Both the position numbers and the translations under genes were made by a program. A stretch of DNA of 64,000 nucleotides. Source: Prorocentrum cordatum. Lineage: Eukaryota. The notes beneath the pieces are model-generated. The model was not told where the DNA came from and did no database searches. It saw nothing but the letters and a program-made list of their open reading frames with translations. The stretch spans positions 2,170,001 to 2,234,000 of the forward strand of contig CAUYUJ010000001.1 in NCBI GenBank assembly GCA_963575745.1. The letters run 5' to 3'. This document shows, piece by piece, positions 1,706 to 59,859 of this stretch; within the stretch, counting starts at the first letter, position 1, and each line of letters begins with the position of its first letter.

Positions 1706-1769
1706 TTTATATATACACGATTTTATATGTGCATATACACATATATATATGTATATATATACAGATATA

Positions 1770-3314: not shown

Positions 3315-3652
3315 GGGCTGGCTAGGCCTGGGGCTAGGACCCGGCCAGCGCACCCCAGGGGCTAGGGCTAGGGCCCCCAGGGTTGGGGTTGGGCCAGAGG
3401 GGTTGGGGCTGGGGCCAAGGCCAGAACCTAGCTAGGGGCCAGGGCTGGGGCCGCGGGGCTAGGGACAGGGTCCTGGAGCCAAGGCCAGGGCTGTGGCTAG
3501 GGCCACGGCTGGGGCAAGAGCCAGGGCGCGCTAGGGCCCCATGGGCCCAGGGCCAGGGCTAGGGCTAGGGCCATGGCGCGCTAGGGCCCTGGGGCTGGGG
3601 TTAAGGCTGGGACCAGGGCCAGAGGGGCCAGGGCAGGGCGAGGGCCCTGGGA
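3315..3652. repeat. Degenerate (GGGCTA/GGGCCA)n hexamer repeat
   Basis: Read directly from the sequence. Confidence 0.85.
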
Positions 3653-8239: not shown

Positions 8240-10080
8240 CGTGGGCGTGGGGGGAGGAGCGGGACGCCGTTCTTCAGCCACGATCCAGAACCAGACGGGC
8301 AGCCGACAGAAACGTTCTGGGCGGATGCGGCGCTCCACGGCAAAGGTTCGCCCAGGCGTCAGATCGACGGTATCGTCCAGGCTATCGTGGCACCCGCCGC
8401 GGCTCCCGAATGGCCGCTGTGACACGTTGGCATGCCTTGTTGCGACAGCTATGCCCGGCGCGATGACTGCTCCGCCTTCGTCTGTCTCCATCGGGGCACG
8501 GAGCGCCAGGGCTCTAATAGAGGTGGCGGGGCCTCAAGTCCATGGAGAAAGCTACCTATCTGCAATCACTGGTCATTCGGGCAACCACCCGCGTTTCAAG
8601 AGGTGCAACTCAACATGCTCATTCGCAAGGTCGCCCCCTTCTCGGTCGTGCTTTCCTCGTCCATTCATGGCAGTGCGCAGCGTGCCAGAGGCGGCGCTAA
8701 ACTATCGTTCATGTTGCGCGCGGGTCTGGGGGGGATGTCGCTTCTCTCGTGTCGGCCACCGGTAGGGCTATTCGCGCTACAATTAGGACGCTTCTGCGGA
8801 GGTCAAGCGCTGCAATATATACAACCACAAGCTTTCCTGACGGCAGGTCTAGTCCGCAATTTCGGCGACCACATATGGTGCTGTGGGCCACAGGTGGCCC
8901 ACAGCACCATATGACGGCCGTGGTTGGCGAGTTCATCTTCGTTGCCAGCATCGCGATGTATATGTTCCCGCTTACTGCCAAGGTTAAGACGATTACTCCT
9001 CCTTCCGATAGAAGCCGTGTGCATCCGAAGGAGTGGGAGAAAGTTTTGTAATCCATGATTGAGATGGTCTGCGAGGAGCCCGCCCACTTCTGCGAGGGGA
9101 CGGCCAAACTCGCCTCGATCGATCGCATATGCGTATCCGCCCCGCCGTGGTTCTCGTGTCAAGTCGCTGCCTCTTGCAACGTGGCCTTGTCTCCTGAACC
9201 TCTCAGGGATGCTGGTATCTCGGATCACGCTGGCGTGCGAGTCGTTCTGAAGTCAAGATCCCGCACGTCGACTTGGTTGCTCCCTGTGCCGCGCGTGGTG
9301 TGCGATATTTATATATATATATATAGAGAGAGAGAGAGAAAGAGAAAGAGAGAGAGAGAGACAGAGATAGAGACAGAGACAGAGACAGAGAAGCTAGGTG
9401 CGCCAGCGTCATGTGTGACGTCCGACCCTATCCCCCCCACCCCTTGCCATTACTTAGATCCTCTCTATGTTCGCACAGTGGGATGTCGAGCTGGACAATG
9501 GACGCGAGAGAGTACGCGATGCATGGTACAGCACGGCATAGCATGACATAAAAGAGCACGGCCACAGCCGACGTGGTCGGGTCGAGAACGCAACGCGTGT
9601 CGACAAGCAGGTCGGTTTGCAAAGCGGGAATCGCAAAGTGCGATCAACTTTGCAGCGGGAGCACGATTTCGAAGGACCGAAACCGCGGAAATGAAACCAT
9701 CGTTGCAGTGGGAGCACGATCAGGAAGGACTGGACGCCCGGAACCGGAGCCAACGCTACAGCATCAGCACGATCTGGAAGAACCGAAACAGAGAAAAGAG
9801 GTCAGCGCTGCAGCGGCATGATTTGGAGGGACTGAGAACGGGAAAATAGAGCCAACGCTGTAGCGGATGCGCCATTCTGAAACGACTGGAAACGCTCGGA
9901 TTGGAGAAGTACATCATAATTTTCAATTCGGCGGCATCCTGTATGTGTAGAAAACGATACGCAGAGGAAGCCAGGACACCTCACCAACGTCTTTTGTGTA
10001 GTCCGGCAGGCTCTTTGATCAGCACACGGAACATGAGTATGATCGATGGTTCTTTCGCTCTGGTTGCAAACGAGAGACCA
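8240..10080 (+). mobile_element. Decayed non-LTR retrotransposon (LINE) fragment with an APE-type endonuclease
   Basis: Frameshifted motifs VVGEFIF (GDFN-like) and ASIDRICVSAPPW...AGISDHAGVRV (9110-9245). Interrupted by (TA)n(GA)n at 9305-9390 and preceded by (CCT)n at 8183-8240. Confidence 0.7.
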
Positions 10081-37500: not shown

Positions 37501-37730
37501 CTTCTGGGCGGCCAGTTGGTTGAGCCGAAGGCCCACGGCATTTTTGTGACAGCGAAAAACCAACAATTGCCTAACGTTCGGCACGCCGTGCACCCTTGCG
37601 GCAAGCTAACAGGGGGCGGCGGATCTTGTGGCCGTCGGCCTCTTCCGCCAACGTGCTTGGGTTCTGGGTCAGGGTCCTCTTGGATGCCTTTTGGGTCTTG
37701 GGGTCGGAGGCAACGACAAAAGGGGATAGG

Positions 37731-37781
<51 letters not shown>

Positions 37782-39619
37782 GGGGGGGACGCATCGACCC
37801 CGAATCGCCCATTGATCGCCGATAGAGGCCCGATAGCCCCGATATGCCCAGGAACTTGCAGCTTCACTTTCGGAGGCCTATCGCTGACCTATCGGCGATG
37901 TGTTGTTCCCCTCTTGTGCCTATCCCCCCTATCGTTGCCCCTCGTTTGGTCTCTTGGAATGCCTCCTCGGGGCCACGTGTATGCCCCTTGGGGCCTTGGC
38001 GGGGGATCCTGGGGTCCTGGCGGGGGCCTCGCGGGGACCTCTCCGGAGCCTCCTGGCGATCTCGTGTGCCGTCTTGGCAAAAGAGGGTTCCTGGGGGCAG
38101 TTCGGGCGCACCCCTCGAGGGCCGAGTAAACTTCTGAATCTAAGTTGTGATCCACGCTCTTCGGCATCGGCAAAAGTCATGCGGGCCGCCCCGAAAGCCA
38201 CGCGGAACGCCCAAAAAGCGCCCAGAATTTGGGGTTCGGGCCCCTTTCACAGAGTATTGACGATACCCCACATACGTACATTCGAAGGGACTCGATGACT
38301 TTCCGCTTCGTGCCCTGCGGCACCGTGGCGGAAAACGCTATAGCCAAGCCCATCCTGCTGGACACCTGTTCCGCGTTTCAAAACAAAAGTCGAGCGCGAC
38401 AACTGACAGGTCTTCAATATTCCAACGCGTGCAATCCGCCGCCGACCCGTTCAGCCATGTAGTTTCGATCATGGACGGACCGCGCAGTGGAAGCGTATAC
38501 GCAAGTCAACAAACATATAAGCAGGGCGATGGTAGAAATGAGCCGAGCGAAGGACCAAATCCTGTGCAGCTGCAAATCATGCAGGGCGCGGCCTTGTCCT
38601 CATGTTCTGCGCGCCGCGGGGGAGATGGAGTCCAGGGCAGTGCGGAGTGGGGGCTGGGGCATAGTCACGCAGGTGCTCGCTGAAATCTCAATGGGACACG
38701 GTCCATGTGAGGCTTGTGCTGACATTGGTCGGGGACCGCGTGCAAGAGCTCCCTCTTTGGCCGTACGTGGAGCTCCCCACGGGGCACAACACGATTGAGG
38801 GGAGTGCCAGGACGGGTTGGGAATCGCATCCGAGTGCGCAAAGATGCCAAAAGGGTGGACGCCAGGCTTGTCGCGCACGACATACGGGACACTCCAGGGC
38901 GGGACTCGCCTTCGGAGCAGCCTCGCACCCGACGGAAGCTGGCGGGATGGACAGCGGAAGCCGGCGGAAGCGTGGGGCCGTGCGGCTGGGTATTTAGTCC
39001 AACAGTTCCGCCTTCCTGCCTCTGCGCCCCTTTTCTGGCCCCAGCTCATCTCGAGGTTTCTGAGATTGGTGCTGCGCCGAGGCATCGGTAGGTTTTGACT
39101 GGGCCCGTCGCAAGACAGCCCAGTGACATTTCAAGGGTGCAGCGCGGGAAGCGGAAGCAGAACGGCGGCGTGTCCGCAGGCGGAAGCCAGCGGAAGGCCA
39201 GAGGCGGCGGGCAGTGGAAGCGAGACCCGAGACGCTTACTTTGTGTGTTCCGGGTTTTGGGAGCCGTCCGTACGGGTTCCCGCGGTTCTCGCCAGCCACA
39301 GCGCGCAGCATCGCAACCAGCTCCCAGCGACGGCAACAATCAGGAGGGGAAAAAACACACAGACACAATTAATCGGCCACTCCCAGGAAAATATGGGAAA
39401 ATATGGGAAGTGGTGGGGAAGACAGAAACCTAGAAAATATGTGGAAATATGGAGAATATTTACCTAACAGCGTAGACTGATAGGTTTCTAGTTGACTCAA
39501 AAGAGCTCACAGATCACTCCACAGGGGGGTCCGGGCAGGCGTTGGGAGTTGCCGGCCGGGCCTGTGCCGGGCTCGTTTTTCACCAACAGTCACACACTTC
39601 GTGCTCGTCGACCTCTCAG

Positions 39620-40034
39620 AACCCCATTCCCAGGCCACATTCTGAATAACCGGATGCAACAGTCACACAACAGTCTCACTTGAATCCCAGAACTCCATTC
39701 CCGGGCCACATTTTGGATGCCCGGAGCCAACTGTAGGCCACTTCGGTCATTTTGGATGCCCGGAGCCAACTGTAGGCCACTTCGTGTTCCCAGAACTCCA
39801 TTCCCGGGCCACATTTTTGCCCGGAGCCAACTGTAGGCCACTTCGTGCTCTTCGAGTTCCCAGAACTCCATTCCCGGGCCACATTTTGAATGCGGAGCCA
39901 ACTGTAGGCCATCTTCAAGTTCCCAGGCCAAGTTCCCCATTCCTGGGCATGATTTTGAATGCCCGGAGCCAACTGTAGGCCACTTCGTGTTCTTCGAGTT
40001 CCCAGAATTCCATTCCCGGGCCACATTTTGAATG
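39620..40034. repeat. ~60-bp minisatellite (CCCAGAACTCCATTCCCGGGCCACATTTTGAATGCCCGGAGCCAACTGTAGGCCACTTCG)
   Basis: About 5-6 tandem copies. Confidence 0.9.
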
Positions 40035-41671
40035 CTGAGGCAGGCTGAGGCTGAGGCTGAGGCAGGCTGAGGCTGAGGCAGGCTGAGGCTGAGGCCGAGG
40101 CTGAAGGCAGACTGAGGCTGAGGCTGAAGGCAGGCTGAGGCTGAGGCAGAGGCAGGCTGAGGCTGAGGCAGGCTGATGAGGCTGAGGCAGGCTGAGGCTG
40201 AGGCTGAGGCTGATGCAGGCTGAGGCTGAGGCAGGCTGAGGCTGAGGCTGAGGCCGAGGCTGAAGGCAGAGGCTGAGGCTGAGGCTGAGGCAGGCTGAGG
40301 CTGAGGCTGAGGCAGGCTGAGGCTGAGGCTGAGGCTGAGGCAGGCTGAGGCTGAGGCTGAGGCAGGCTGAGGCTGAGGCTGAGGCAGGCTGAGGCTGAGG
40401 CAGGCTGAGGCTGAGGCTGAGGCTGAGGCTGAGGCTGCAGGCTGAGGCTGAGGCTGAGGCTGAGGCTGAGGCTGAGGCAGGCTGAGGCTGAGGCTGAGGC
40501 AGGCTGATGCTGAGGCTGAGGCAGGCTGAGGCTGAGGCTGAGGCTGAGGCTGAGGCTGAGGCTGAGGCTGATGCAGGCTGAGGCTGAGGCAGGCTGAGGC
40601 TGAGGCCGAGGCTGAAGGCAGACTGAGGCTGAGGCTGAAGCAGGCTGAGGCTGAGGCTGAGGCAGGCTGAGGCTGAGGCTGAGGCTGAGGCTGAGGCTGC
40701 AGGCTGAGGCTGAGGCTGAGGCAGGCTGAGGCTGAGGCTGAGGCTGAGGGCTGAGGCTGAGGCTGCAGGCTGAGGCTGAGGCTGAGGCTGAGGCGGCTTG
40801 AGGCTGAGGCTGAGGCAGGCTGAGGCTGAGGCCGAGGCTGAAGGCAGACTGAGGCTGAGGCTGAAGCAGGCTGAGGCTGAGGCCAAGGCAGGCTGAGGCT
40901 GAGGCTGAGGCAGGCTGAGGCTGAGGCAGGCTGAGGCTGAGGCTGAGGCTCATGCAGGCTGAGGCTGAGGCAGGCGGAGGCTGAGGCCGAGGCTGAAGGC
41001 AGACTGAGGCTGAGGCTGAAGCAGGCTGAGGCTGAGGCTGAGGCAGGCTGAGGCTGAGGCTGATGCAGGCTGAGGCTGAGGCAGGCTGAGGCTAAGGCTG
41101 AGGCTGATGCAGCTGAGGCTGCGGCAGGCTGAGGCTGAGGCGGAGGCTGAAGGCAGACTGAGGCTGAGGCTGAAGCAGGCTGAGGCTGAGGCTGAGGCAG
41201 GCTGAGGCTGAGGCTGAGGCAGGCTGAGGCTGAGGCAGGCTGAGGCCGAGGCCGAGGCTGCAGGCAGACTGAGGCTGAGGCTGAAGCAGGCTGAGGCTGA
41301 GGCTGAGGCAGGCTGAGGCTGAGGCTGAGGCTGAGGCAGGCTGATGCTGAGGCAGGCTGAGGCTGAGGCTGAGGCTGATGCAGGCTGAGGCTGAGGCAGG
41401 CTGAGGCTGAGGCCGAGGCCGACGGCAGACTGAGGCTGAGGCTGAAGCAGGCTGAGGCTGAGGCAGAGGCAGGCTGAGGCTGAGGCTGAGGCAGGCTGAT
41501 GCTGAGGCAGGCTGAGGCTGAGGCTGAGGCTGATGCAGGCTGAGGCTGCAGGCAGGCTGAGGCCGAGGCTGAAGGCAGACTGATGCTGAGGCTGAAGCAG
41601 GCTGAGGCTGAGGCTGAGGCTGAGGCTGAGGCAGGCTGAGGCTGAGGCTGAGGCAGGCTGAGGCTGAGGCT
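40035..41671. repeat. (GCTGAG)n satellite punctuated by GCAG
   Basis: 1.6 kb read directly from the sequence. Confidence 0.98.
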
Positions 41672-42023
41672 GTGACTGCGACTGCCGTTGCCACTGCGAC
41701 TGTCATCGCGAATGCGACTACGACTGCGAGAACAGCAGAATTCTACAACTGGATTCTCATCCGAATCTTAAGGGGAATGCTTCCAGATATGCTCCTACAC
41801 ATCGATGTTAGGTTGCTTTGCCGGGATAATTTTATTTGTGTGTATTTATTTGTGTGTCCTGGGGCCCGGACGATCCAACTGGGGCCGCGGGTGGAGCTCC
41901 CCACCGCGCACGAGCCACGCGAGGCCTCTCGGGCAGTGCTGGGGTGACGTTGGGGGCCTCTCGTGCCGTCCTGGGCACGCGACTGAAAATGCAGTGAGGT
42001 CAAAATCCGACGAGAGTAGTCTA

Positions 42024-43431: not shown

Positions 43432-43965
43432 GCGTTGACGCGCCGCGTCTCGACATGTGTGTTGAGCGATGCCCGACAGAGAAAGAACAATTGCATCCAC
43501 GCTCAGTCCTGACGCCATCCTTCTCCGTTCCCTCGGGGGGACGCCGAACAAATCGAGTCTCGAGATGAGCCTGAGCAGACCCATCAAGCAACCATAAATA
43601 GCTTATCGGACCTTTCGGTCTGGGAGCCTCTTGGTAGCCTAACGGGGCAATCTTGCAGCACTCTTGGGGCCTTTTGGGCTCTCTTGGGGCCCTCGTTTGG
43701 CCCTCTGAGGGTCATCTTCGTGGTATTGGGGGCTATTTTGGAGGACATCGATCAAAGAAGGGGGCGCCAACCGCCGCGTGACAAGGATTTGCCCAGGCCC
43801 ACCCGCGCGGGGCCTGGGACAGGTCTGGCCAGTCTTAGTGCCAGCGCAGTCGGTGGTCGACCTGCACTTGCGCTGACCGCCTCCCCGCGTTCCTTCTCCC
43901 CCCCCCTCCCCCTCACCCCACCCCGTCGTGCACCCCCCTCTTCCTTCTCCTCCTCCTCCTCCTCC

Positions 43966-43999
<34 letters not shown>

Positions 44000-44014
44000 T
44001 CTCCTCCTCCTCCT

Positions 44015-44051
44015 TCCGTAGCCAGTTTGGCTCAAGCCATGATGGCTCAAG
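44015..44051 (+). other. Genomic dinoSL copy plus tandem 15-nt SL relic
   Basis: TCCGTAGCCAGTTTGGCTCAAG (21/22 to dinoSL) immediately followed by CCATGATGGCTCAAG (13/15 to SL nt 8-22). Confidence 0.93.
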
Positions 44052-45339
44052 GGATGCCGCTGTCATCGCGGCTAGTTTGCCGCGGCCGCGCCCAGCCCTT
44101 GTCTCCCGATCGCGCTTGCTCATGCCTGGGACGAATGGCGGGGGCTCCAAGCGCAGAGGTACAAAGAAGAACATGTCGTGGTGTGCTCGCCGTGCTGCTG
44201 CTAGTGCAGGTGATGGTGTTCGTGGGGATGAGGGTCCATCGACGGGAAACGACGATAGGTATCGTTCCAGCCGCGCCTACAACGATGACGAAGACGGAAT
44301 GGATCCAGGAAGTTGGGGCGCATACATGAATGGACCCCATTGACGAATTCGGTACCAAATTCAAGGTTTTCCGGGTCGAGCTCGCAAGTGTGGTTGCCAG
44401 CACAGCGAATGCAGCCGCAGGTAAAGCTGTGGACCCTGTCATGTCAGCCATCAAAGCGCTGGAGGAGGCGGCCAAGTCGGATGCGAACACTCGCAAGGCG
44501 CACGTGGAGGCGGTTTTCCGCCTTGTGATCTTCCAAGCGAAGCTGGACTCGCTTTCTGCCTAGGTGGCGGCGACCGGCTGTAGGACTGACAGTATTGCGG
44601 AAGAGCGGGCAGAGATGCGCTCACCCATAGAGGATATGCGGCGCGAGATTACTCCCGCCAACATGGCCCCGCCGCCGCCCAAGCCTCCCAGCGCCGGGCT
44701 CCACCGGGAAGCCCGCGCTATCATTATCAAGATTGTCGCGCCCACCGTGGTCAAGTAGGCGGACTTTGCATCTCACGTTGGCAAGTGGCTCAACGACGCG
44801 AAGATCGAGGGCTTCACGTTGGTGGGCGAGGAGCAGGATCGGACCTTCATAATGCAGCTCACAGGTGCAGTTGTTGTCGCTGGACGCTGTGTCGTTCAGG
44901 CTCTCGGCGCTTTTCGCCCCCCTGGCAAACGGCAGCGCGTGCGTTTTCCAGTCGCTGCGGCGTCTGGAGGTTCTACGCAAGTGCATGCGGGCTCTGACAA
45001 GAGCCCGTTTCAGATCACAGTCGACATCGTTGGGGGGATCGTTGCAATTATTCTCCGTCAGCGCTTCCACGGGGTCCGACTCTTCTTCGACAGGCAGAAT
45101 GGTTGGATCACCGAGAACTGGAGCCCGATCCTCAGGCTGGAGCCCCATGCTGGTCGCGACCCTGGCCTGTGTTTCTAGCATGATGTAGCGCTCGCCAATC
45201 GCGGTTGGACCCGCGCTGAGGCGCGGACGCGCACGGTGCACACTCTTGAACCCAATGCAGCACCAGAGATGTCTCTGCAGCGTTTTCGACGACATCGTTG
45301 CGCACGCGGCGAACGGCTGGCGCGCCCTAGAGGCCGAGG

Positions 45340-46095
45340 AGCTGACGTTCACTTCGTGGAGCGAAAGGGCTTTATTACGCTGTCGTGGTGATCATGCTAT
45401 AGCTAGGGCGACCTACTTGCAAAAGCGGGCTCTCGCACCCGGTGTCTGCGACCCAAGAGGTCCAACAGTCGTTGGAGGCAGAGTGGCGCCGTTGCCGGCG
45501 GTTGTTGGGTCGTTTGCATGTGACCGGGAAGGACACGCGCGCGGTGGCGCTGCCACGCTCGCGCCCTTATCGTCATCAGCCCCAGTGCCGAGTCGTCCAC
45601 CTGTCGTTCTGGCCAGAGTGCTTCAGACGATTGCACGTGGCTCACGATCAGAGATTCGGCGCTACAGCTGTCGCAGCAACGATCGATCGGCAGAGGATGT
45701 TCGGAAGGTGGCCTCTGGGCTGGAAGACGATACTTCTTGGGGCCAAGCGGGTGCTAACTCGCGGTTGGTTGTGGCACGTGGCGATTTCATATCTGCTTCC
45801 CGCGACCCCCTGAGCCCGCTCGCCCATCGGGCCGCCAGGGGCACCGAGGTCGTCGACAACGCGTGCAAAGATATGAAGACCTGGATGGCAGAGCCATGTA
45901 AGATGCCGGAACTGGCTTACGAGGACCCCGCGCGCTTCTGCAAGGAGTCCAATGCGCCGGCGCAGATGGAGCGCATCTGGGTGTCTGGGCCGGACTGGCC
46001 ACCCTCGCAACTTCAACGCGCGGCGCGCGCTGTCTCGACACCCGAGGAGCTGCCCGCCCAAGCTATTTCCGGCCACGCCGCCGTTTGGTCTCGCT
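45340..46095 (+). pseudogene. APE endonuclease domain of LINE ORF2 (degenerate)
   Basis: LTFTSWSERALL (SWN-like), LVVARGDF and MERIWVSGPDW...AISGHAAV (SDH motif mutated). It resembles the 9110-9245 remnant. Confidence 0.8.
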
Positions 46096-46834
46096 CAGCA
46101 TCGCCAACGGGACGCAGCGTCTCGGAAGGCGGTGCGAGCGGCCATTGACCAGCGTCTTGAATTTCGATTGCGACTAGAGGTTTCACTTTCGCAAGATGGC
46201 TGCCCATCCCCCTCCGCGTCGCCCCCTCGGCACCTCGGGCGGCGCAAGGACCTGGCGGGCGCAGCCGCATGCGATGCGCTTCGCCAACTGCTAGTCAACG
46301 ACGCGCCCGGCACAGATGCCTGGCGCATCCTCGGTCGGCAGATGGCGCGGGCACTCTGCAGGCAAGATGCGGATTTCGCGCGGAAGGTCTGCGACGCGTC
46401 GGAGGCGGCTCGCATTCGCGCTGATTGATTTAGGAATGGCGCAAGTTTGATCGGCCCAGCGGCGCCCCGGGCGCGGGCGGGGCGGATGCGCCCAACGCGC
46501 TGCTGCAGGACAGGAACTCGCTGACCTCCAATGCGAGCATGCGCGCGGTCGCGCTAAGCCCACTGCGGGCGCCATCGCTGCCAAGCAGAGGAGAGCTCGC
46601 TTGCGGGCGCCCTTCGCGAAAAGGCTCGCGCTGCGCGCAGCGAGGGTCGGCGTCTGCTGCGTCGACCCTGTGGCGAAGCTTGATGCATTGGCGAGACTAC
46701 TGGGCCCCCATCTCGGCGAAGTCCCCGCCCTTTCCACGTCGCGCGAGGGCGCGCGCCCAGGGGCCCGCGGCGCATTGCGATTTCCCCCAGATAATACCGC
46801 CCTCGCGCGAGCTTCTTTCTCGAACACTTCCCAG

Positions 46835-47950
46835 ATTGGCGCCGTCGAGATCTGCGCCGGGCGTCGATGGTCTCTCCTGCTCGGCGCGGGCTACAAGCCC
46901 AGCAAGAGCGGATGTCCTTTGAAGCGCGCGCGCATGGATCATGAATTTCCAGTAGCTCTTCTCCTCATCTGGCGCGACCCTGCAGGCGTTCCTGCCGAAA
47001 GGGCGCCAAGCTGGCGACGACGGCGAGAAGTGGGCCACGCGCGCGCCTGACACCGTCAGAACCTTGGGGCTGCGCAGTGCGGATGCGAAGAACGTTCAAC
47101 ATCGCACGTGCCCCGATCGCTCAGCAGACCTCGTCGGCGGCCCAGCGAGGCATTATCGCGGGCGCGCAACTCATTTCCAACATCCTCGGGTTGGACGCCA
47201 CGGCGCGCATCCCCTTGCCACTTCTTGCGGCGGAGCGCGAGCAGCCGCTGCGCGTCGCGCTCGACTCCGGACTAGCACTTGCCTCCGCCAGGAACTGCTC
47301 TTCACTGTCGTAGAGCGGCTTGAGATTCCTTCTGCATTGCGCGCGGCCCTCCGGCCATTATGCGGAGTGGCGGCGGCCGCGGGGCGGGCAGCAGGCGTGC
47401 CCTCGGACCGTCCGCGTCTGCTGCTTGATCATTCAGAGGCGCGCGCTCTGGCCGTCTCTCCGCAGCGGCGACGTCGCCCACCTTGGAGGACCTCAGGTTG
47501 GGCCTCGAGGCGGCTGGGCGTGGGATTTACAGCCTGCGGCGCAGCCTGCGGCGGGGCGTAGTTTGACATGATCGACCTTCGCGTCTCGGCTAGCGAGGCG
47601 GCAGTTACGGAGAAAGTGGCGAACTTGAAGCTCTAGCCAACGAAGTGCGTCCTCGCGCAACTGGGCGGCGCCTTTTCGATCCAGAATCAGTTCGAGATCC
47701 AGCGGAACCTGGGGGGGCACCTGAAAGCATGGAAGTTGTTCAGGGTCGCGCCAACATTGCTGCATCTTGGCACGCGGTTGGGGCCGGCGGCAACTGCGAT
47801 GCAATTCTGGGGCGCGCGGTGGCTCGATTGCAAATCAGGGGTCGCCGCGTCGGCTGCTCCGTCTGCCCGCGCGCCCCCCGCAGCCACCTGACGCGTCGCG
47901 AGGGCGCGCCCTACCAAGAGCTGCGTCGCGCACTTCTCACCGCTGCCAGA
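46835..47950 (+). pseudogene. Reverse transcriptase domain of LINE ORF2 (frameshifted)
   Basis: SAPGVDGL (PGPDG), DTVRTLGLRSADAK (RPL), AQRGIIAGAQLISNILGLD (QxGF), ANLKL*PTKCVL and LLHLGTRLGP (YLG) in order. The YADD core is not clearly recognisable. Confidence 0.8.
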
Positions 47951-50900
47951 TCAGGCGCTTGCTTTTTCTAGCCCGGGCGATAACGCGCGCGATCGCCCCT
48001 GCCCCCCCCCCATCGCGTCGCGCCGCCCCCCCATCGCGCCCCCCCCCTTCCCCTGGGGGAGGGGGGGCGGGCGGGGGGAGCTACGCGAAGAAGAGGGGCA
48101 GGAAGCGGAGGACGATGGCGAGGAAGGGGAAGGGGGCGACGACGACGACGACGACGACGACGACAACGACTACGAGCCCGACGTCAACGATCGCGACGAC
48201 GACGACGACGCTGGCGACTCCGACGACGACGATTGCGACGGCGACTCCGACGCTGACGACGACGACGGCGACGACCCCGACGACAATTCTCGCGACTCCG
48301 ATGGGGCGACGACGACGCCGAGGACGACGACTGCGAACATTCCGACGACCGCGGCGACTTCGCCGGCGACGACGACGACGACCCGGACGACACCCGAAGC
48401 TTCCGATTGGGGGGGGGCACGTGAAGGATGGGGAGGGGGGGGCCTCTGGGGCCCTTCTCATCCTCCTCCTCCGGGCGCCCGTCTCCTCTGCCCCCTCCCC
48501 TTTTTTCTGCGTGAAAAACAAAGAACACGTGCGAGCGCGCCTGCTTCGGCATCCTGCTGGAGCCCGCCGCTGAATCGATTTCTTCTATCTTGGGCAGTGG
48601 GGGGGGGCCCAAGCTGAGGGCGCTCGCTGCTTCGCCCTCGGCCGTGCGAGTGCGGTCTGGACTTGTCGCGCGCCCTGAAAATCGCCGCCGCCTCCGTCGC
48701 CTTCGCATTTTCCCCGGGCGGTGGGCGCGGCATCGGCGACGCGCGGGCCCCAGTGGAACAATGCTCCCGCCCCCTTTGGCGGCCACCTTCGCTCGTGGAA
48801 TGTTTGGAAAAGGTGGGCACTGAAGCGCCGCCTTCTGGGGCTGCGGCGGCTTAGCAACTTCTGCGCGAGCCCGAGTCGAGACTATCTGTCCAGGAGACGG
48901 CGCGCGCGGCCTTCCTCGCGAACGTACCCAAGCTTTTCCTCGCATCCCGCGATGGTTCAGAGTCTCCTTTAACCGATGCGATCATCAAGCGCTGGATGAA
49001 ATGGCCCCCGCTCAAACACAAAAGACTTGTCAAGCTTCAGCGGGGGAAGCTGCGACAGAAGATGCTCTCCCTTCCAGTGGCCTGGGCTTCGAGCGCACTC
49101 CGTGGACTCGTCGGTGGATGGCTCGCGTAAGCTCGGATGTCTGCACCTGCTGAGCCGCGCAATTTCGCCTTTCCGCTGCGAAGGCTGCAGCGACGAGACA
49201 GGTCATAGGCTGCAGCGACGAGATAGGTCATGATTGGGAGTGTTGGAATCTCGCGCGGGGCATCGCCGTGGCCAGATCTGGCCGGCGGCAACTTCCCCCA
49301 TCGGACGCGCGGCTTCGCTGGGGACTTCGGAGGGCTGTAGACGACGACCTGATGAACACCCAGCTCGCTCCCATCATCTACCACGAACGTCACCACCTCG
49401 ACTTGGCGTAGCCGGGCGCCCTGCTCAAAGCTGCGCGCGGCGCCCTTCGCGCGCGCGTTCTGGCGCGCCCGACTTCGAGGCGGGATCGCGCGGCCCAACG
49501 CGTTCCCCCCCCGGCGTCGAGTACGCCGAATGGTGATTTGGCTACCGGCGTGCGCGACCATGGCTTTGTGAAGGTCGAACTCCTGGCCGAGTTGCCCTTC
49601 GGTCGACGCGCCCTGCGCGATGGTCTTCCGCGCCGTGCCCGATTCCTCTGGCGGTTGGGAGGGCGCGTTGTTGTATTGAGGCCCCACTGGACGCTGGTAG
49701 TGCGGTAGTTGAACGGCTGTGTGCCCTCCTCCTACGCGTCGAGTCTCGGGCGCGAAACTGGCCGCCCTCGATTGAGCCGGAAGATCCGCGCCACTTCGGC
49801 TTCGAGGATTGGGCGAGTTGGAGCGCCGATTTCGCGGCCGACATTTCCAGATGCAGGGCGCCCAGTGGGCCCCTCTTTAACATGGACGCCGCAGATGGCG
49901 AGCGCCTCTCCCTGAGCTCGGCGTTGCGCCGCCGCGCGGGGTGGCGCAGATCCTCGGTGGGCCGCGCAACCCCGACCGCCCATCTTGCCAGGCCCTGGCC
50001 CGGACGCGACCGCGCGCGATTGCCAGCGCTGCGCGCTCGTGGCGAAGAGCTTCTCGCGATGCGACAGTGGCAACAGCGAGCTCAGCGTGTCTACGCCGCA
50101 GTGAGAGCTCATGATGGCTCACCAGCTGGATCAGGGTAGAAACGTGGATTGGGGGCTTCTCCCAACCATTGAGGGCGAGACGCAAGATAGAGTCGAACGT
50201 TGTTACCCTGATTGTGACGAGCTCACCTTGGACATCGACACTATCGAAGAGGGCAGACATCACGGACCTGGGATCAGAGGGCAAATCCAGTGGTTGGCCT
50301 TCCTGGCCCGTGCGTCGCCGTTTTGCGGGTGACAACGTCGCCCTCCATCTTGCCTTTGCGAAGTGGGTGGTAGTGATGATGCTCGCGGCGTTAGATCTCA
50401 TGCCCCGCTGTCACGCTCGGGCTCAGGCCCCGCGTCTGCGCCGGCGCCTCGGATGCAAGAAAATCCAGGGAGTGGCCTTCCTGGCTCATTTTCGCCACTT
50501 GTGGGGGCGGGTCGCAGCGAGGAAGAGGGTTGACTCTGCCTCCGCAGCTCGGGCGACGTCGCCGAGATCTGGCAGGCTGCATTTCTGTCTGGGTGCAGAT
50601 CTGGATTCTCACCTTGCTTGTCAAACCCGAGGGCAGCGACTTCCAACAGTGGGCGGAGCGGCGCGCCCCATATCTGGCGGATCGTCTTCGCCACCCCAGC
50701 CTTCGGGCATTGGTCCGCGCATCGCCGCCAGACATCCCCGGGGCGCCCGCCTGCCCGACAGACAGATGGAACCAAGCGACCGAGATGCGCGCGAGTGGGC
50801 GGCGCACCCTGACCACCCCTCGCGAGCAGAGGAGGATGCGCGCGAGGTCGGCTCGGCCTGTGCACGACGACAAGCGGGCCGCCGTTCTACGCCAACGAGC

Positions 50901-52577
50901 TCCCGCACATCTTTGGCAGAAAGGGCGGGTTGCAGACCTCGCCAGGATGGCCACTAACGAGCAGTCGGATGTAGAAGCTATTCAGCGGACCAGCAACACG
51001 AGCCCCGACATTTCTGATCAGTCACATCTTGACATTCTGCCACATCTACGGATTGATCCTGCGCCTTGCGGGTCTGACGGCGGTGGAATTTACGTGTCCG
51101 GCGACGATAACGGCAGCGTGGACCATTTTGAGCACCTTGCCCCAACTGGCGCGGACATTGCGCTCGTGCGCGCGACGGAGGTAGAGGACGAACAGATGGC
51201 AGTTGAGCAGGTTGCTGCAAGCGAGGCGCATCACGAGAACGACGCCATGTGCAATGCTGAATCTGCGCGCCACTTTGGGCCCGTTATTACTGACGATGAA
51301 TTTGTCGCGCAGGTTCAAGGGATCGCGAGGTGGTCAGCGGGCGGGCTGCGGCGACGCTCCTTTTGACCCTGCGGCGACGTCATTGGGCCCCCCCCACCAA
51401 TGTCTCCGTCTCACTCGGCGGGCGAGGCCGACGACTCTGACTGCAGCGACGAGGACGGCGATTTTGACCGGCGGATGGCGGAGCGAGTGCTTGGAGTCAT
51501 TTGCCCAGGCGGCCCTGTTGGCGGAGCTGCCATGCTCTTCGCGGGCGCGCGCGGTGTTGCTGCAGGAGCGTCATCGGAGGCGGCGTCGAGCTCGGCGCCC
51601 GCGAGCTGCCTGGGCGCATGTCTGTTTGGTATGCCGGTTGGTATTCCGACGCTGGCAGGAGGCTCCCCCGCGGCCTTACATGATGCTCGTCTTCCCGACC
51701 ATGGTGCTGCAGAGCACGATGGTTTTGAACAGTTCGTTGGAAATCTGACGGAGGCGGGGGCCTTCCCCGCGGCCCTGTATGAAGGCGAGCTATTTGGTCT
51801 TGAAGGTGCGTGAGAAGGGGTGCCTCACGTGTCCGCTGGTGGACCGACAGATATATGCGGGCCTTCTCCGCGACCTCGCATCCTGAGGAGTTTCTTGCTG
51901 TTGACGCTGAAGCTGAAGAGCTCTCTCCCGCATTGGCTGGCGACCCAGCGGCGGCGGGTCCCGTCCCAGTGTGGCATGACGGGTTCGATGGTGAAGTGCG
52001 CAGCCCAGACGAGCTCCCAGAGCTGATTGCTGCCGCCCAAATCGGCGATCGTCCTGACTGGCCCCACGACCATCATGCAGCACGGGGTGTCGTGGACAGC
52101 GACGGCATAGCCCCAACTAGCGTGCTCGATACCAACGGGATGGCCAACTTGCACCTCGTTCCCGACGGTGTGTTGGGGCTCTCGGAGGAGACGTCGGCGG
52201 CGTTCGGTGTTGTCTCGGCTGCATTGTTCGATTCCACCGACTGCCAACCTACTTGGCAATGTCTTGGGTTCGGCGGAAGGACCACCGGCCGAATCCGTTG
52301 AAGGTGATCGACGCACGGCTGCTGCACATCAGCGAGGAGGGCAAGCGCATGTTGATCCACCTGTGCAGCCAGTCCCCGACGGCGCCGCCATCGCGGCGCC
52401 GCCCGTCGACGGCGACAGCTTCATCGACGACTTCTTCGGGGAGCAAGACGTCCGACACTCCACGCTCCCGAGAGGTCCCGCCGCCAACGGCGCCTAAGGT
52501 GGCGGACGGGAGACTCTCTTCGAGGCGTGGGTTCTTCCTCCCCTTCCGCCTCCTCCTCCTCCTCCTCCTCCTCCTCC

Positions 52578-52608
<31 letters not shown>

Positions 52609-53847
52609 CTCTTCCCCCTCCCGGAAGCCAGCGCCGAGAAGGACATCCGCCGGAACTTCCGGGGACCCTGCATGGAAAATATCTGGACAGCGCAGGTCTG
52701 GGTCAGTCCCCGGCCGCTTCCCTCGGGCCAGTTTTTCGCCCCCGATCCAGTTTTCATGGCCCCAAGGCTGGGCAAATGGCCCCATGCGTGGAGGGGCTTC
52801 CGTGCATGGAAACGCCGCCAGGATAGAAACGGTCATGTCGACGGAGTTTGGGCGCCCCAACGCCCCTCGGCGGGACGTCTGCGGGCCGCAGGCCCCCAGG
52901 CCCGCCGGGACCCGCCGCCAGCCGGCGCGCTGCGGGAGGCCAGCGCAGTGATGGCGGGAACCCCGCCCCCCGCCAACTGCGGGGAGCTGGCCGCATGCGC
53001 CGAGCAGGCCCGCCTGATGGGGGGCTGCGCGCGTGTTCCTCGTGCTCCCCGTCGAGTTTCGCGCCGATGCGGGGGCGCTCGCGTGCCCGTCCCGTGCCCG
53101 CAGGCCTGGAATCGCCGTGCCGAAGGCTCGCGTGGTTTTCACCAGCTGCGCCTCGTCGAGGGCGGTCTGGGCGTGCCGGAATCGTCCCGGACGGCCGCCC
53201 GAGAGCCGAGTTATGACCCAGAAGCCAGGGGGCAACGTTAGGGGGGGTCGGGTCAGGGGGGGACGCGTTGACCCCCAATCGCCCACTCATCGCCGACGGA
53301 AGCTTGATAGCCCACCTCGCCCAGGAGTGTTCAGTGTCGCCATCGGGGGCCTATCGCCGATCTGTCCGCGATGCATTGCGGATGCGAGCTCGATGTTTTC
53401 TCCCACTCAGCCGGTTCCCCCCCCCTGCTCGTTGCCACTCTCAGCGGCACAGCAACGGGCATTCACAAACGAGGACTCATTAACGGAAATTTGCCGAAAG
53501 TTGCCGCTTTAGGGCCTCTTTCTGGCATGGCAGCGTTGCCCACATCGGGAACGGTTGGCTTCGCCCGGTCAGTGGCCAAAGTACCCATTATTGGAGTCCC
53601 CGTGCTCTCCTTCTCCTTCTCCTTCCTCCCTCGTGATCCCCTCTCCTTGCGTCGCATAACAGTTACGTCTTCCTGACGGCTCACGGTGTGTGGGTCCTTG
53701 GAATCTCGGCGTCCCGTTGGGTGCCCCCCAAAAAGTGGAGTCCCCGTTAGATGGGCGCTGACACCTCGGCATCGCTCGGACGTGTGCGTGTTCTCCTCGG
53801 CGAGGACCATCGAGGAGCATCTTGACCATCCTGCGAAAACAAAAAAC

Positions 53848-54240
53848 GTACGAAGTCGAACCATGCACGGGGAACGGACGTCTGAGCGATGGCGAGTGTC
53901 GTTGCTTCGAGACGCTTCGGAGGAGGAGGAGGAAAAGGAGAAGGAGGAGGAGGAGGAGGAGGAGGAGGAGGAGGAGGAGGAGGAGGAGGAGAGGCATCTC
54001 CGGTGACAAACTGAGCGCACGAAGATGAACTATGCACGGGGAACGGAAGTCCGAGCGAGGGCGAGTGTCGTTGCTTCGAGGCACTTCGGAGGGGGAGGAG
54101 GAGGAGGAGGAGGAGGAGGAGGAGGAGGAGGAGGAGGAGGGGCACCTCTGGCGACAAACTAAACGCACGAAGTCGAAAAATGCATGGGGCATGGACGTCC
54201 GATCGATGGCGAGTGTCGTTGCCACTCGCTGGATGGGGGG
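53848..54240. repeat. Tandem ~150-170 bp units each containing a (GAG)n run
   Basis: ATGCACGGGGAACGGA.GTC.GAGCGA.GGCGAGTGTCGTTGC occurs three times, the third diverged. Confidence 0.85.
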
Positions 54241-54890: not shown

Positions 54891-55342
54891 CTCCCCTCCT
54901 CCTCCTCCTCCTCCTCCTCCTCCTCCTCCTCCTCCTCCTCCTCCTCCTCTCCTCCTCCTCCCCTCCTCCCCCTCCTCCTCCTCCTCCTCCTCCTCCTCCT
55001 CATCATCATCATCATCATCTTCCTCCTCCTCCTCCTCCTCCTCCTCCTCCCCCTCCTCCTCCCCCTTCTCCACCTCCTCCTCGGTTTAACCGAACCTGCA
55101 GGGTTGGCCCTTTCCCGAATCCTTGCTTCGGTGCGGATCTTCTGCGCGGCTCGTCTCCGTCGTCGTCGTTGTTGTTGTCGGCATCGTCGTGGTGGTGGTG
55201 CGTCATGCTCTGCTCGGGACTTGTTGCCCTTATGCAATGACCACCACCCACGACCCCGCCCACCCTGATCTTCGTTCTCGATCCCCCAAATCCTCCTCGA
55301 TCCTCCTCCTCCTCTTCCTCCTCCTCGTCCTCTTCCTCCTCC

Positions 55343-55364
55343 TTCGTAGCCACTGTGGCTCAAG
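55343..55364 (+). other. Genomic dinoSL copy
   Basis: TTCGTAGCCACTGTGGCTCAAG (19/22), directly after a CCT-rich tract. Confidence 0.8.
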
Positions 55365-57220
55365 GTGTAACGTCCGCCCCGAAATGATAGTTTGACTGCA
55401 GCGAAGGGGTTGGCTCGAAGGCTCCAGCCCGAAGACTGCACATTCACCCACGTCCCCTACCTGAGCTTCAGGCCTGGCAGGTCCCAGCTTCCAGCCGTTC
55501 ATCTCTCAGTGCCGCTGTGTGCGTGTGTCCGCCGACCAGCTCGCGCAGATCCTGGCAGGCATCAGTGGAATCAACGGCCGTCTCCATGGTGTGGACCATT
55601 CGCTGAAAGATGTCGCCGAGATGAAGGCGATCGCACAGCATGACGAGAAACTTGAAGCAATGCAGGACAAGCTAAACCAGCATCAGCAGAAGACCGACGA
55701 GGCGATCGCGAGCCTTGCCCAGCACGAAGTAATTCTCCGCCTGCAGGAGAAGTGTGACACGGCAGCTGCCCAGATTCAGAGTCTGACGAGTCCGGACACT
55801 AGTTTGGCTGCTTCGGGAGGCCCTAGTGGCTGGAGTTCGGTCGGTGTTCGCTCCAAGCGTGCGCGTAATGGCGTTCCTCGTGCCAGCCCGACCGTCGTCA
55901 TCGACGACGCTGAGCCCGTCTCCAACCCTTGTCGCCTGTTCATCGGAGGTTTACCAGACCAGTGCTGGCCAAGATCACGACCAATTTCGCAGAGTCCCTG
56001 CGCTCGAGTCCGGTGCTGCCGAACGTTTCCACGTCCACGGTGAAGACCCACAACATTAATAAGTCCTTCAGCAATGACTTCGATGAGCAGATGCATGTTC
56101 GCTCGTTCGTCGACACGTCACGGAGCGTGGCGTTATTTGGACGGACGTGAAGCACTTGTATCAGGTGCCCATGCGGGCTCGATTGGGCGCCTCTTCTGGC
56201 GTTAGACGTCGCAACAAGGCGCTTGGGCTTCTGTGGACCAAGGTTCACGAACAGATGCGCGAGAATGGGATCTGGCGTCCCACGATGAAGCTCGGCAGCC
56301 AGGGCTTCGAATAATTCCTTTACCCTATCGAGAATGAAGACTGCACGGTGCTGCACAACATCAAGGAACTCGAGCAGGACCAGTTTTAGATCGGGGCGCA
56401 CTACAGCGAACTGCTCATCCTCGGCATCAATGAGGAGCAGACTGACAAGATCAGCCCGGCCATCGCGCTAGAGGCTTCCCTTGCTGTCTTAGAGTGTCTC
56501 TGCGGCTGCGACGATGAGATTTGGGATGGTGCACGGGGCGCGCTGCACCGACTCCTCTTCGCATCGTTGAGGCACCATGCAGCACGTGCAGCAGTTCCAG
56601 GAGTGGTTCGTCTTCCCTCTCGCCGCCCTCTGGAGGATCCGATGTCTCTGGAATGGATTTCTTTGGTCTCAGTTCGCACTTGCCCAAGCAGGCCTGTTCA
56701 ATTGTCCTTTGGGCCGCCTGGTCTATATACGGTGTTACTTTCGCCCCGCAAGCCTCGCGTAAGCAGGCGCATGGAATGGCTGACTGCGCATTGTTCCAGA
56801 CGTGACATTGCCCGCGTTCAGGAGGCTCGCGGGTCGGAGGCCCACCTGGAGTGCGCCGGCAAGGAAGCGCGCCAAACTTCCGGTGTCGGCGCGTTCCTCG
56901 ACTCCTCTTCTTCCGGCGGCTGTCTCGCGTTCGCTCATCCTCAGCTCCAGGCGTCATTCGCGCGCGCATCGCCGCCATCTCGAGCGCGGGCGCACCAGTA
57001 GCTCAGTTTATTCATGTGCAATACCAAGGAGCGTTTGCAAATCGGTGCGCCGCGCGGGCCGCGCCTGCGGGGCGTGCGGCGGAGCTCGCTATGGGGCCGC
57101 GAAGCGCGTGATGGGGCGTGCTGGATCGGGCGCGGGTACGCCGCGCGGACTGCGCCGCCGGCGCCTCTCTGCGGAGCCCCCCGCGGGGCCGCGAAGCGCG
57201 GGAAGTGCGCCCCGGAACCG
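55343..57220 (+). mobile_element. SL-headed decayed element with a LINE ORF1-like coiled-coil region, 3' truncated
   Basis: Coiled-coil ADQLAQILAGI...DEKLEAMQDKLNQHQQKTDEAIASL, then NPCRLFIGGLP (RRM-like). It is frameshifted, has no RT and ends at (GAT)n. Confidence 0.5.
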
Positions 57221-57467
57221 ATGGCGATGATGATGATGACGATGATGCTATTTGTCGCAAGTAAAATCATAACGATGAGAATTATCTGAGAATGCCAACA
57301 ATGATAATGATTCCCCATCAGAGCTTGCTTCTGTAGGGGTCCTAGCGGATATAAAGCTGAGGTGAGGTGAGCGGCCGATTTCGGTGGCCGGGGCCGGGTG
57401 CCCGGGTGCCCGGGGGTGCCTTGGTGGCCGATTTCGGTGGCCGGGCCAGGGTGCCCGGGGGCGCCCA

Positions 57468-57702
57468 ATAGCCCACTAGCCCAGTAGCCCTATAGCCCTA
57501 TAGCCGCATAGCCCTATAGCCCTCTAGCCCTACAGCTTTATATCCCTATAGCCCTAATAGCCTTATATCCCTATAGCCCCATAGCCCATTTAGCTCTATA
57601 GCTCCATAGCCCTATGGCCCTATAGGTCGCAGTCCTATAGCCCGATAGCCCTACAGCCCGATAGCCGTATAGCCCAATAGCCCTATAGCCCTATAGCCCT
57701 AA
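57468..57702. repeat. (TATAGCCC)n octamer satellite
   Basis: Read directly from the sequence. Confidence 0.93.
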
Positions 57703-59859
57703 CAAAAATATGATTGGGGCTTATCTCCGGTATCATATAATGATAGCGTGAATTGTAAGAATACGAATATGACTAATCATTTTGTAGACTAATATGAACA
57801 ACAATAATAGCACTAGTGATGATGACGATGATGAGGAGGAGGGCGATGATGATGATGTTGAGTTTGATGATCGCGGCTACGATGGCGGTGAAAATGATGG
57901 CGATGATGACGCCGATGACGCGGGCGGCGGCGACGAGGAAGGCAGAGATTGGGACGGGGGGGAAGGGGGAGAGGGAAGAGGAGGAGAGGAGCGACGCGGG
58001 TCGCTGTCCCTTCAACACGAGGCCCCAACACCAAAGGATCATTGAGAAACGAATAACAACGCTTTCGAAACCGTAGATGGGGCGCAGAAGACAGTTCGGT
58101 AACGATCACGAGCGGGGAGTTAACATTGAGCCGGTGCACCAAGGCGCCGGGAAATCAAATGACAAAAGGAAGGCGGAACAGGAAATTCCGAGTTGGACGA
58201 GGACGATCCTGCCCAGTTGGACGCGAACCTCTGGCATTTTTTGATGGCGAGCTTAAAAGGGAAATCCGCGGGGGAGCGCGAGTGTCCACGTGAAGGAGAC
58301 GTCTTGATGGTTCATCGTTAAAAATGAGCGTTGTGGCCGTGCAGCTTGAGCACTGGAGCGCGCCAGTAGAAGCCCTGGGAAGAAGTGCGGGTCTAGTTAT
58401 TCGTTGCCGCTGCCATTCAGGGCTACAGCCTCGAGGGTCATCATGGCCCGTGCAGGCGATTGGTTTGCCGACTAGCAATGACGTTGCTTGAATACCGCAG
58501 GGTCGTTCAACACCGGCACCTAACAAACGCGCTTCGTCATGCGCGAGGATTGGGCATTGGGGGAAATGGCTGGACGCCGATGCGATGAGCAATGGCGCAA
58601 TGGCAACTGGCCAGGCTGACGAAGACGACCGTGGAAACTTGGGGCACGAATGGAGACGTCGCAGGTTCCCCTTGCGAGGCAGGCACTTGGCGGTCCCGGA
58701 ACGTGGAAAATATAGCCGGGAACGGCAACGCGAACGAAACAAGCTAAGACAGGTGCGGAAGAAGTTTGGCGCTGATCAGTTAGAGGGAGTTTTACAAGTG
58801 CGGCGAGAAGGATCACGTCGCAGCCCGCAATCCCAAAAACGCCAGCGATGTCACCGCCGGCCATGGCGGCAGGAGGCCCAGGGGAGCTGCGCAGCTGTCA
58901 GGACAACCTCTGCCAGGGCCGGGATACCATCGCGTCGAGGTGGGCGAACTAACTGACGCGCGCGGAGCCGTGGACAACCACCATTGGGGCCGGATGAAAT
59001 GGCCGAGGAGTGGAGGACGCAGCGCCAGGCGACAAGGAGGAGGAACAAAGAGGCAAGGTAAGATGTCAAGAAGAAGCACGCATCACAGTAGCGCGGCGTT
59101 GTTGACTCGGACCACGGAACCGGCCCGGACAACCGAATTACGGAGCGCATCGAGCAGGGCGGAAGTTGGACGCACAAAAAAGCGCCGAACATGCGAATTT
59201 GCCGAGACGGGCGGATCCAACAATAAAGTCAGCGACATGGACAGACTAGTTGTCGGAGTGTCTCCAGGGGCCCACAGCGTTGTTGGACGTCAAACAAATG
59301 AAAACCCACTTCCCTGACATACCCGAGGAGATTTCCAAGAGCGGCAAACCCTGCAGCGCAGCTGTGCAGGGCAGTCATCAGGGACCGTAGGCAACGGGTC
59401 ATTGAGCGCGCCCATCCACGTGGCTGAAATTAAAGGGGGGCCCGGGCCTGCTCGTGAAATGGTCAGAGCGGGGAATCGCAGAGGCTAATTTCGAGACGAC
59501 GATGCGCGACCCTGCAGGTGCGTCGAGCACGAGGCACTTGGGCAAAATGCGATTACTATCGAGACATTGGCAAGCTCCTGTTCACTATCTGGGCCCCGAG
59601 AAGGGCTGCGAGTCATGAGGTTAGCGCGGAGAGATGCGGGGATCTTCCCAGGCAGGGGGCTTTCATGGCGGACCTGTTCTACTGCGCCCGATTGAGCCCG
59701 CGAGCGCCAGTTAAACATTCTGGCGCCCTGCCTGATTCTGGAGGGCGACCAAGAGGGCAAGGATGCGGGGAAGCGAGCGAAGTGGCGCGAAGGATGCCCA
59801 TGTGGCTGGAGGCCCAGGTGCCCAAAATAGCTACATGTGACCTTGGACCAAGCGGAATA

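Follow-up and report, generated by a model that had tools for sequence, protein, structure and literature searches.

A dead LINE headed by a spliced leader behind a (CCT)n tract in Prorocentrum cordatum, probably copied from a trans-spliced mRNA

The window analyzed here is a stretch of 64,000 nucleotides of the dinoflagellate Prorocentrum cordatum (positions 2,170,001 to 2,234,000 of contig CAUYUJ010000001.1, assembly GCA_963575745.1), with a GC content of 0.56-0.68 per 4 kb. Between about 44 and 49.4 kb it carries a decayed long interspersed nuclear element (LINE), at the head of which stands a genomic copy of the 22-nt spliced leader of dinoflagellates (dinoSL, or SL), placed directly behind a (CCT)n microsatellite. 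The features of this region are listed below in window coordinates; ORF, APE, RT, HMM and i-E stand for open reading frame, apurinic-type endonuclease, reverse transcriptase, hidden Markov model and independent E-value.

43937..44014, + strand: (CCT)n tract of 26 units with 86% matches (Tandem Repeats Finder), with no spacer before the SL
44015..44036, + strand: genome-encoded dinoSL, the 5' end of the element, 21/22 identical, with T changed to G at SL position 11
44037..44051, + strand: SL relic (SL nt 8-22), 13/15 identical, adjoining the SL
44309..45229, + strand: N-terminal (ORF1-like) part with a coiled coil and a conserved 'GxDKSP' block (tblastn with P0022 residues 5-320, sum E = 9e-33)
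45342..46088, + strand: APE domain, within the single open frame 45189-46145 (phmmer, tblastn, and HMM with i-E 1.3e-18)
46144..46401, + strand: linker between APE and RT (HMM positions 597-680, i-E 0.0018)
46674..47858, + strand: reverse transcriptase, five colinear pieces in changing frames (HMM and tblastn)
47994..48500, + strand: low-complexity block of C runs, (CGA)n and G runs (Tandem Repeats Finder)
48945..49387, + strand: C-terminal part with a Cys-His remnant (CxxC...H...C at about 49170-49260; tblastn and weak HMM matches)
49410..52535, + strand: DNA without LINE homology between the last LINE match and (TCC)n, which may or may not belong to the element
52536..52621, + strand: (TCC)n of 29 units (Tandem Repeats Finder), a possible 3' flank by analogy with the LINE L155 described below

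An initial annotation of this DNA had reported a (CCT)n run that ends exactly at a 21/22 dinoSL copy and is followed by a 15-nt relic of the SL, and both observations were borne out. The tract ends at 44014, the SL begins at the very next base, and the pyrimidine run ahead of its CCGTAG is unbroken over 83 nt. With the dinoSL consensus taken as printed in PMC7245778 and PMC5585692, a search for the 22-nt sequence with ≤3 mismatches found two sites in the 64 kb (44015-44036 with one mismatch and 55343-55364 with three) and none in 100 shuffled sequences, while SL nt 8-22 gave three matches in the window against a shuffle mean of 0.15. The SL's own nt 8-22 and the relic deviate from the consensus at non-identical positions, so the SL unit and the relic would each go back to the consensus independently, and neither would be a recent copy of the other. 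Only 0.76% of the window positions lie 0-2 nt behind (CCT)4 (≤1 mismatch), yet both SL-like sites do (p ~5.7e-5 under independence); conversely, only two of the approximately 20 CCT-type tracts in the window lead into SL-like sequence.

The body of the element was recognized through its relatives. RVT_1, Exo_endo_phos and zinc-finger families gave no Pfam match in the stop-to-stop ORFs of ≥50 aa at 42.9-58.1 kb (106 on the + strand and 98 on the - strand) or in 43940-52623 translated in all three + frames with stops written as X; Pfam is too insensitive for so decayed a copy, and its null result does not amount to an absence of LINE domains. A phmmer search with the ORF 45189-46145 matched 12 proteins at E ≤ 1e-3 (best, 6.6e-19), seven of which contain Exo_endo_phos (E ≤ 0.01), and one of these, the 1123-aa P. 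cordatum protein P0009, also contains RVT_1. The follow-on search from P0009 yielded 18 proteins, 16 of them P. cordatum gene models, and by tblastn the LINE proteins of this species are colinear with the + strand of the window at 44.3-49.4 kb, the RT pieces at 46692-47096, 47068-47286 and 47574-47822 being matched by proteins that bear RVT_1. A family HMM of 1438 positions, built from eight family proteins, recovered 11 pieces in order from 44570 to 49387, with the best i-E values in the N-terminal part (1.4e-18, at 44771-45163) and in the APE domain (1.3e-18); hhalign gave 98.1% for 44759-45175 and 97.6% for 45189-46145. The ORF1-like frame (X at two stops) retrieved no homologue in a word-based search among 3148 candidates, and no P0022-related loci were found in viral contigs.

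The five RT pieces were detected by the HMM at 46674-46919 (i-E 7.9e-6), 46956-47093 (5.4e-7), 47089-47286 (5.2e-6), 47441-47527 (0.054) and 47640-47858 (9e-7), and by tblastn with residues 120-248 of P0024 (E 7.8e-20). HMM positions 1120-1263 are missing, and in their place is a 1.1 kb stretch that includes the low-complexity block 47994-48500, which shows the very high read depth typical of simple repeats and is a later insertion or expansion. In the C-terminal part, tblastn matched 48966-49172 (E 0.002-0.009), and the last two HMM pieces are weak (i-E 0.13 and 0.84) and colinear, with an RWGL block aligned as well as the Cys-His motif's His and Cys. Long terminal repeats (LTRs) are absent: blastn of 43900-52700 against the window found no second copy of any part. 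The ORF1-like, APE, RT and Cys-His parts named by the initial annotation thus exist, as these relatives indicate, but they are located at 44.3-49.4 kb and not at 49-52 kb.

This LINE copy is dead, and it was probably full-length originally. The N-terminal part has in-frame TAG codons at 44561-44563 and 44756-44758, seven frame changes separate the 11 HMM pieces (computed from their coordinates), and a 25-bp tandem duplication at 49182-49231 (Tandem Repeats Finder) breaks the Cys-His motif. By eye, motif residues of the APE domain seem altered as well, with GDFI in place of the GDFNF of P0003, P0006 and P0009, and SGH in place of the SDH of P0006 and P0009. The depth over the LINE body in one DNA run (X1) is 0.2-6.6, with identical short contigs, so close sister copies at ≥85% likeness would be lacking. 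Among the contigs of X1, none spans the element or leaves it out, and the matches of X2 and X3 are confined to simple repeats.

Two further features of the window are related to this element, one by its SL and the other by its APE domain:

55291..55364, + strand: (TCC)n, then an SL-like 22-mer (55343-55364, three mismatches), then GT, without a spacer
8521..9291, + strand: isolated APE fragment of the same LINE family (tblastn with P0006 residues 110-353, E 1.4e-15; HMM i-E 2.9e-10)

The SL-like 22-mer at 55 kb has TCG in place of TCCG, a variant that passages of PMC6616646 describe for SL-like genes of Fugacium, and is followed by a coiled-coil-like frame at 55465-56040. The unit behind it (55343-57000) shows no likeness to the one at 44 kb beyond the SL and has no family HMM match at i-E ≤ 1; a likeness to an APE start perceived there by eye found no support from the family HMM or hhalign. 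A (CCT)n tract (8186-8239) precedes the APE fragment by 280 nt, (TA)n(GA)n follows it at once, and neither tblastn nor the family HMM detected an N-terminal or RT part around it.

Similar junctions were found in metagenomes. Scanning for (CCT)4, followed after 0-6 nt by the SL, yielded 14 loci, about 11 of them distinct (L124 = L129, L123 ~ L126 and L120 ~ L132). In 8 of the 14 a perfect in-phase tract abuts the SL with zero spacer, so that SL nt 1 is at once the last T of the tract (P = 2.3e-4 if spacers of 0-6 nt were equally likely), and in 12 an unbroken pyrimidine run of 16-57 nt reaches the SL. Three or four of the loci are heads of LINEs. In L132, an open ORF1 is accompanied by a second frame that contains Exo_endo_phos and shares 53% identity with a 1604-aa protein with APE and RT, and L120 is the 5' homologue of L132; L125 and L131, both of which stand behind the (CCT)n for which they were selected, match the family HMM of the window LINE at 1.3e-23 and 3.4e-21. 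L128, in turn, is a retrogene of ribosomal protein L28e (RPL28e; Pfam 4.7e-21), and the others lead into unrelated ORFs. The (CCT)n-SL junction is therefore recurrent: cellular retrocopies have it, and so do at least two LINE families. Relic-like sequence follows the SL also in L121, L124/L129 and L128, and in L131 an older, decayed full-length SL lies 77 nt behind the newer SL head, within the 5' untranslated region (UTR); in the earlier copy of L131, the splice acceptor used was apparently one 75 nt upstream of the old SL and not the AG of that SL. In blastn comparisons the metagenome loci and the window flanks had only the SL in common, so that a similarity noted by eye was not borne out. 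As a separate observation, clusters of the 11-mer motif GGCCCCAAGAG / GCCCAAGAGGC (≤1 mismatch) occur in the window at 5467-6477, 10127-10413, 35647-37985 and 43661-43681, nearly all on the minus strand, and also just upstream of the (CCT)n-SL junction in L124 and L129.

A sample not selected for CCT was obtained with the exact SL, which gave 20 loci in 19 distinct contexts on contigs binned into bacterial metagenome-assembled genomes (MAGs). In 7 of the 19 contexts a GT comes after the SL, which is the arrangement in SL RNA genes; among the remaining 12, the 10 with ≥12 nt upstream are evaluable heads of the retrocopy type. Four of these 10 are flush with a microsatellite, namely GT-rich sequence (L134), (TCA)10 (L137), (AG)n (L147) and (GACA)6 (L149), and none has CCT upstream. 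The whole 9096-nt contig of L147, termed L155, consists of (AG)n at 1-114, an SL at 117-137, an ORF1 at 123-1340 that encodes a RanBP-type zinc ribbon, an open frame at 1358-8965 that encodes Exo_endo_phos, RVT_1 and RNase_H, six consecutive A, and (GA)n at 9006-9073. It is apparently an intact SL-headed LINE of 8.9 kb that was inserted within a purine-strand microsatellite. Pfam found no LINE domain in four other SL-headed contigs (L156, L157, L149 and L144). Proteins of the L132 family (P0001 and P0002) and of L155 were tried as kin of the window LINE and dismissed, as none matched the window below E 0.4; BLASTP of the ORF 45189-46145 against P0001 was likewise not significant. Judged by its sequence, the window LINE is a member of the family of P0009 and P0022, and not of the L132 or L155 families.

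The exact dinoSL was also present in 119 stretches of IMG/VR contigs (L001-L119; for example, L012, L024 and L061), mostly AT-rich contigs of giant-virus MAGs, where a conserved AAAAATTGA-like motif precedes it by approximately 45 nt and genes follow shortly after it; in L024, three SL units are spaced 50 nt apart. From their sequence, these contigs appear to belong to giant viruses that infect dinoflagellates and carry the host SL hard-coded at gene starts.

The structure of the locus is probably best explained by a full-length LINE, now dead, that was copied with its SL from a trans-spliced mRNA, the relic stemming from an earlier round and the (CCT)n tract being the integration site. According to passages of PMC7245778, PMC12014239 and PMC5585692, the dinoSL reaches mRNAs only via trans-splicing, and an SL followed by a relic of nt 8-22 marks a retroposed copy that was spliced anew at the AG of its SL. 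The LINE RNA would be handled like any dinoflagellate mRNA, receiving the host SL at its 5' end by trans-splicing, and the APE and RT of the element would then copy the whole RNA into the genome, leaving a DNA copy that starts at SL nt 1. The SL stands at the start of the DNA copy in LINEs of three families (L132, L125, L131 and L155 are likewise SL-headed), and since the copies start at SL nt 1 they would have been made from trans-spliced mRNA, which is what the initial annotation had proposed and these relatives support. The relic would have formed when transcription from upstream ran through a genomic SL-headed copy and the RNA was re-spliced at the AG inside the SL of that copy; copies that lack a promoter could thus be expressed again by way of read-through transcripts, the AG being supplied by the copied SL itself.

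Microsatellites of several kinds often immediately adjoin SL-headed retrocopies, whether these derive from LINEs or from cellular mRNAs. We infer that such repeats are a preferred or permissive target of integration, and that in the CCT case the ends were joined in phase by short homology. This reading on the integration side is suggested because the repeat type varies, is not always a pyrimidine tract, flanks L155 on both sides and heads cellular retrocopies too. As a polypyrimidine tract (CCT)n may still help, but the data do not require it.

A larger part was given to the tract by the initial annotation, in which (CCT)n is a device that rebuilds a splice acceptor. Worked out further, the idea is that the lineage depends on landing behind (CCT)n, where the tract and TCCGTAG restore a trans-splice acceptor, and that only such copies are re-expressed and propagate, which would be why (CCT)n stands before the SL. 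As the idea would have it, CCGTAG comes directly after a pyrimidine run of 16-83 nt in both window copies and in 12 of the 14 metagenome loci, and the nt 8-22 relic, with the relic-like sequences behind the SL of L121, L124/L129 and L128, shows that the AG inside a genomic SL is usable. The metagenome loci were, however, selected for CCT, whereas the repeats flush with the SL in the unselected sample are (AG)n, GT-rich, (TCA)n and (GACA)n, which form no pyrimidine tract; the intact L155 lies behind (AG)n and is flanked by it at either end, as at an insertion site, and (CCT)n precedes the RPL28e retrogene as well. Moreover, an acceptor needs neither the phase nor the zero spacer of 8 of the 14 junctions, which end-joining would give, and both window copies are dead. 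We therefore consider the acceptor role improbable. The claim of at least two cycles of transcription, SL addition and reinsertion fared better, as an SL with a relic fits a second SL addition, but two cycles are not forced. SL and relic could have been added together in one trans-splicing event from an SL RNA gene that contains an SL and a partial SL, and tandem-SL genes, along with this same interpretation, have been proposed for Fugacium kawagutii in passages of PMC6616646. The relic starts, however, at CCA (nt 8), as splicing at the AG of the SL predicts; the older full SL of L131, 77 nt inside the newer head, needs two separate events; and repeated recycling is the usual reading in passages of PMC7245778 and PMC5585692. 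A single round is, in our view, rather unlikely.

The 3' side is more evenly balanced. The initial annotation saw (CCT)n again downstream of the LINE, and (TCC)29 is indeed present at 52536-52621; nothing was identified at 49.5-52.5 kb, so that it is a possible 3' flank only. There is nearly an even chance that the LINE ends near 49.5-49.8 kb, and that (TCC)n at 52536 is one of the many CCT tracts of the window, which would make the two-sided picture a coincidence. Homology to the family runs out at 49387 (HMM position 1393 of 1438), and a stop follows at 49409; family proteins stop about 130 residues past the Cys-His motif; 49.4-52.5 kb matched neither Pfam, the family HMM nor the proteins of L155 and P0001; for RNase H, a two-sequence profile placed none of 24 ORFs of 49.3-52.8 kb above 1%; and about 20 CCT-type tracts are available in the window. 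On the other hand, L155 is an SL-headed LINE of 8.9 kb with the same repeat on both sides, and the stretch 44015-52535 would measure 8.5 kb. A target-site duplication is not readable inside a repeat. In the window, the 5' end adjoins (CCT)n, and the next (TCC)n comes only 3.1 kb past the last homology. By analogy with L155, it is possible that the latter is the 3' flank. Most improbable is an insertion into an SL RNA gene in the manner of CRE, SLACS and NeSL, the SL then being target DNA and not copied RNA; the initial annotation had set the element apart from these, rightly as it appears. A GT does stand behind the second SL-like 22-mer of the window, as in SL RNA genes, and SL followed by GT is common (7 of the 19 unselected contexts). 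But the 44-kb SL is followed by the relic and a 5' UTR with no SL intron, and is preceded by a microsatellite and not by an SL gene array; the endonuclease is of the APE type; and the same junction heads the RPL28e retrogene.

Several points weigh against the copying of a trans-spliced mRNA into a microsatellite. Trans-splicing is read here from DNA copies, and the tandem-SL donor genes proposed in passages of PMC6616646 could yield SL and relic in one step. The metagenome loci were chosen for (CCT)n-SL and so demonstrate that the junction recurs, not how frequent it is; the unselected sample is a small one of 10 evaluable heads, comes from contigs binned into bacterial MAGs and includes no CCT; and three GC-rich SL loci of the viral collection have no upstream repeat. 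Assemblies tend to break at microsatellites, which explains contig ends there, though not an SL flush with the repeat. The second SL-like head of the window matches no LINE (in hhalign, 0 of 13 ORFs exceeded 1%). As for the 44-kb LINE, the 3.1 kb between its last homology and (TCC)n at 52536 matched nothing, its 3' end was not found, and neither a poly(A) before 52536 or near 49.5-49.8 kb nor a recognizable target-site duplication was seen.

A wider proposal may be put forward, tentatively and as somewhat less probable than its opposite: dinoflagellate LINEs would have no 5' end-defining device of their own, host trans-splicing would cut and cap their read-through RNA and make it translatable, the same machinery would be the engine of SL-tagged retrogenes, and the microsatellite-SL junction would be its footprint. 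Each new LINE copy would be re-spliceable, since the copied SL holds its own AG, and this would be a simple answer to how a promoter-less LINE acquires a capped 5' end where all mRNAs are trans-spliced. The existence of SL-headed LINEs suggests that full-length LINE RNA takes the same SL-capped route as cellular retrogenes. The very many SL-tagged retrogenes would then owe their origin to the machinery that joins SL-capped RNA to microsatellite DNA, the engine long sought for them, and the 5' microsatellite junction common to LINEs and to retrocopies such as RPL28e would be the footprint that links both. This idea about the junction is testable on any dinoflagellate assembly.

Other repeats in the window include a (GCTGAG)n satellite of 1.6 kb and about 290 units at 40034-41672, and a 148-bp tandem repeat at 53919-54222 with a (GGA)n tract in every unit. 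At 57350-57710 are CCCTATAG-like short repeats, over which the word depth in the DNA run reaches bins of up to 17940, as compared with 0.2-6.6 over the LINE body; a word depth this high suggests a high-copy satellite of the P. cordatum genome.

DinoSL-tagged retrogenes, the products of mRNA recycling, were reportedly described by Slamovits and Keeling in 2008. The window LINE resembles those in passages of PMC7245778, PMC5585692 and PMC12014239 in its genomic 5' SL, its nt 8-22 relic and its putative source, a trans-spliced mRNA; these passages make no mention of the microsatellite junction seen here, and the words 'pyrimidine' and 'microsatellite' occur 0 times in PMC5585692. It is different in that recycling here concerns RNA of the retrotransposon itself, with APE and RT encoded in it. 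Song et al. found the Gene Ontology (GO) term 'RNA-dependent DNA replication' to be enriched during both bouts of retroposition (passages of PMC5585692), so SL-tagged RT genes would already have been seen in bulk. A full-text literature search found no description of SL-headed LINEs or of the SL-microsatellite junction, though supplements may list such genes.

Among non-LTR elements, Dong, Waldo, Mino, Kibi and Koshi target microsatellites. They have in common with the LINEs described here a repeat on both sides of the copy (shown for L155 and possible for the window copy). In the present case, however, several repeat types are involved, cellular retrocopies share the junction and the endonuclease is of the APE type, whereas target specificity of the microsatellite type is tied mostly to elements with a restriction-like endonuclease, according to the abstract of PMC4640811.

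A defined and translatable 5' end must be obtained by any LINE that is promoter-less or co-transcribed, and two other solutions of this problem are the HDV-like ribozyme of R2, which defines the 5' end (abstract of PMC3774820), and the Pr77 internal promoter of L1Tc/ingi, which yields unspliced transcripts (abstracts of PMC1874656 and PMC8190864). Unlike in these, in the LINEs considered here host trans-splicing would cut and cap the RNA, as their DNA copies suggest. Also alike, in that a LINE lies beside spliced-leader sequence, are CRE1/2, SLACS and CZAR of trypanosomatids and NeSL-1 of C. elegans. These elements insert into SL RNA genes and have a restriction-like endonuclease C-terminal to the RT; here, by contrast, the APE is N-terminal to the RT, and the SL would be the 5' end of the copied RNA. 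In short, the window element is a LINE of the APE type and at the same time a dinoSL-tagged retrocopy, and it is not of the CRE/SLACS/NeSL type.

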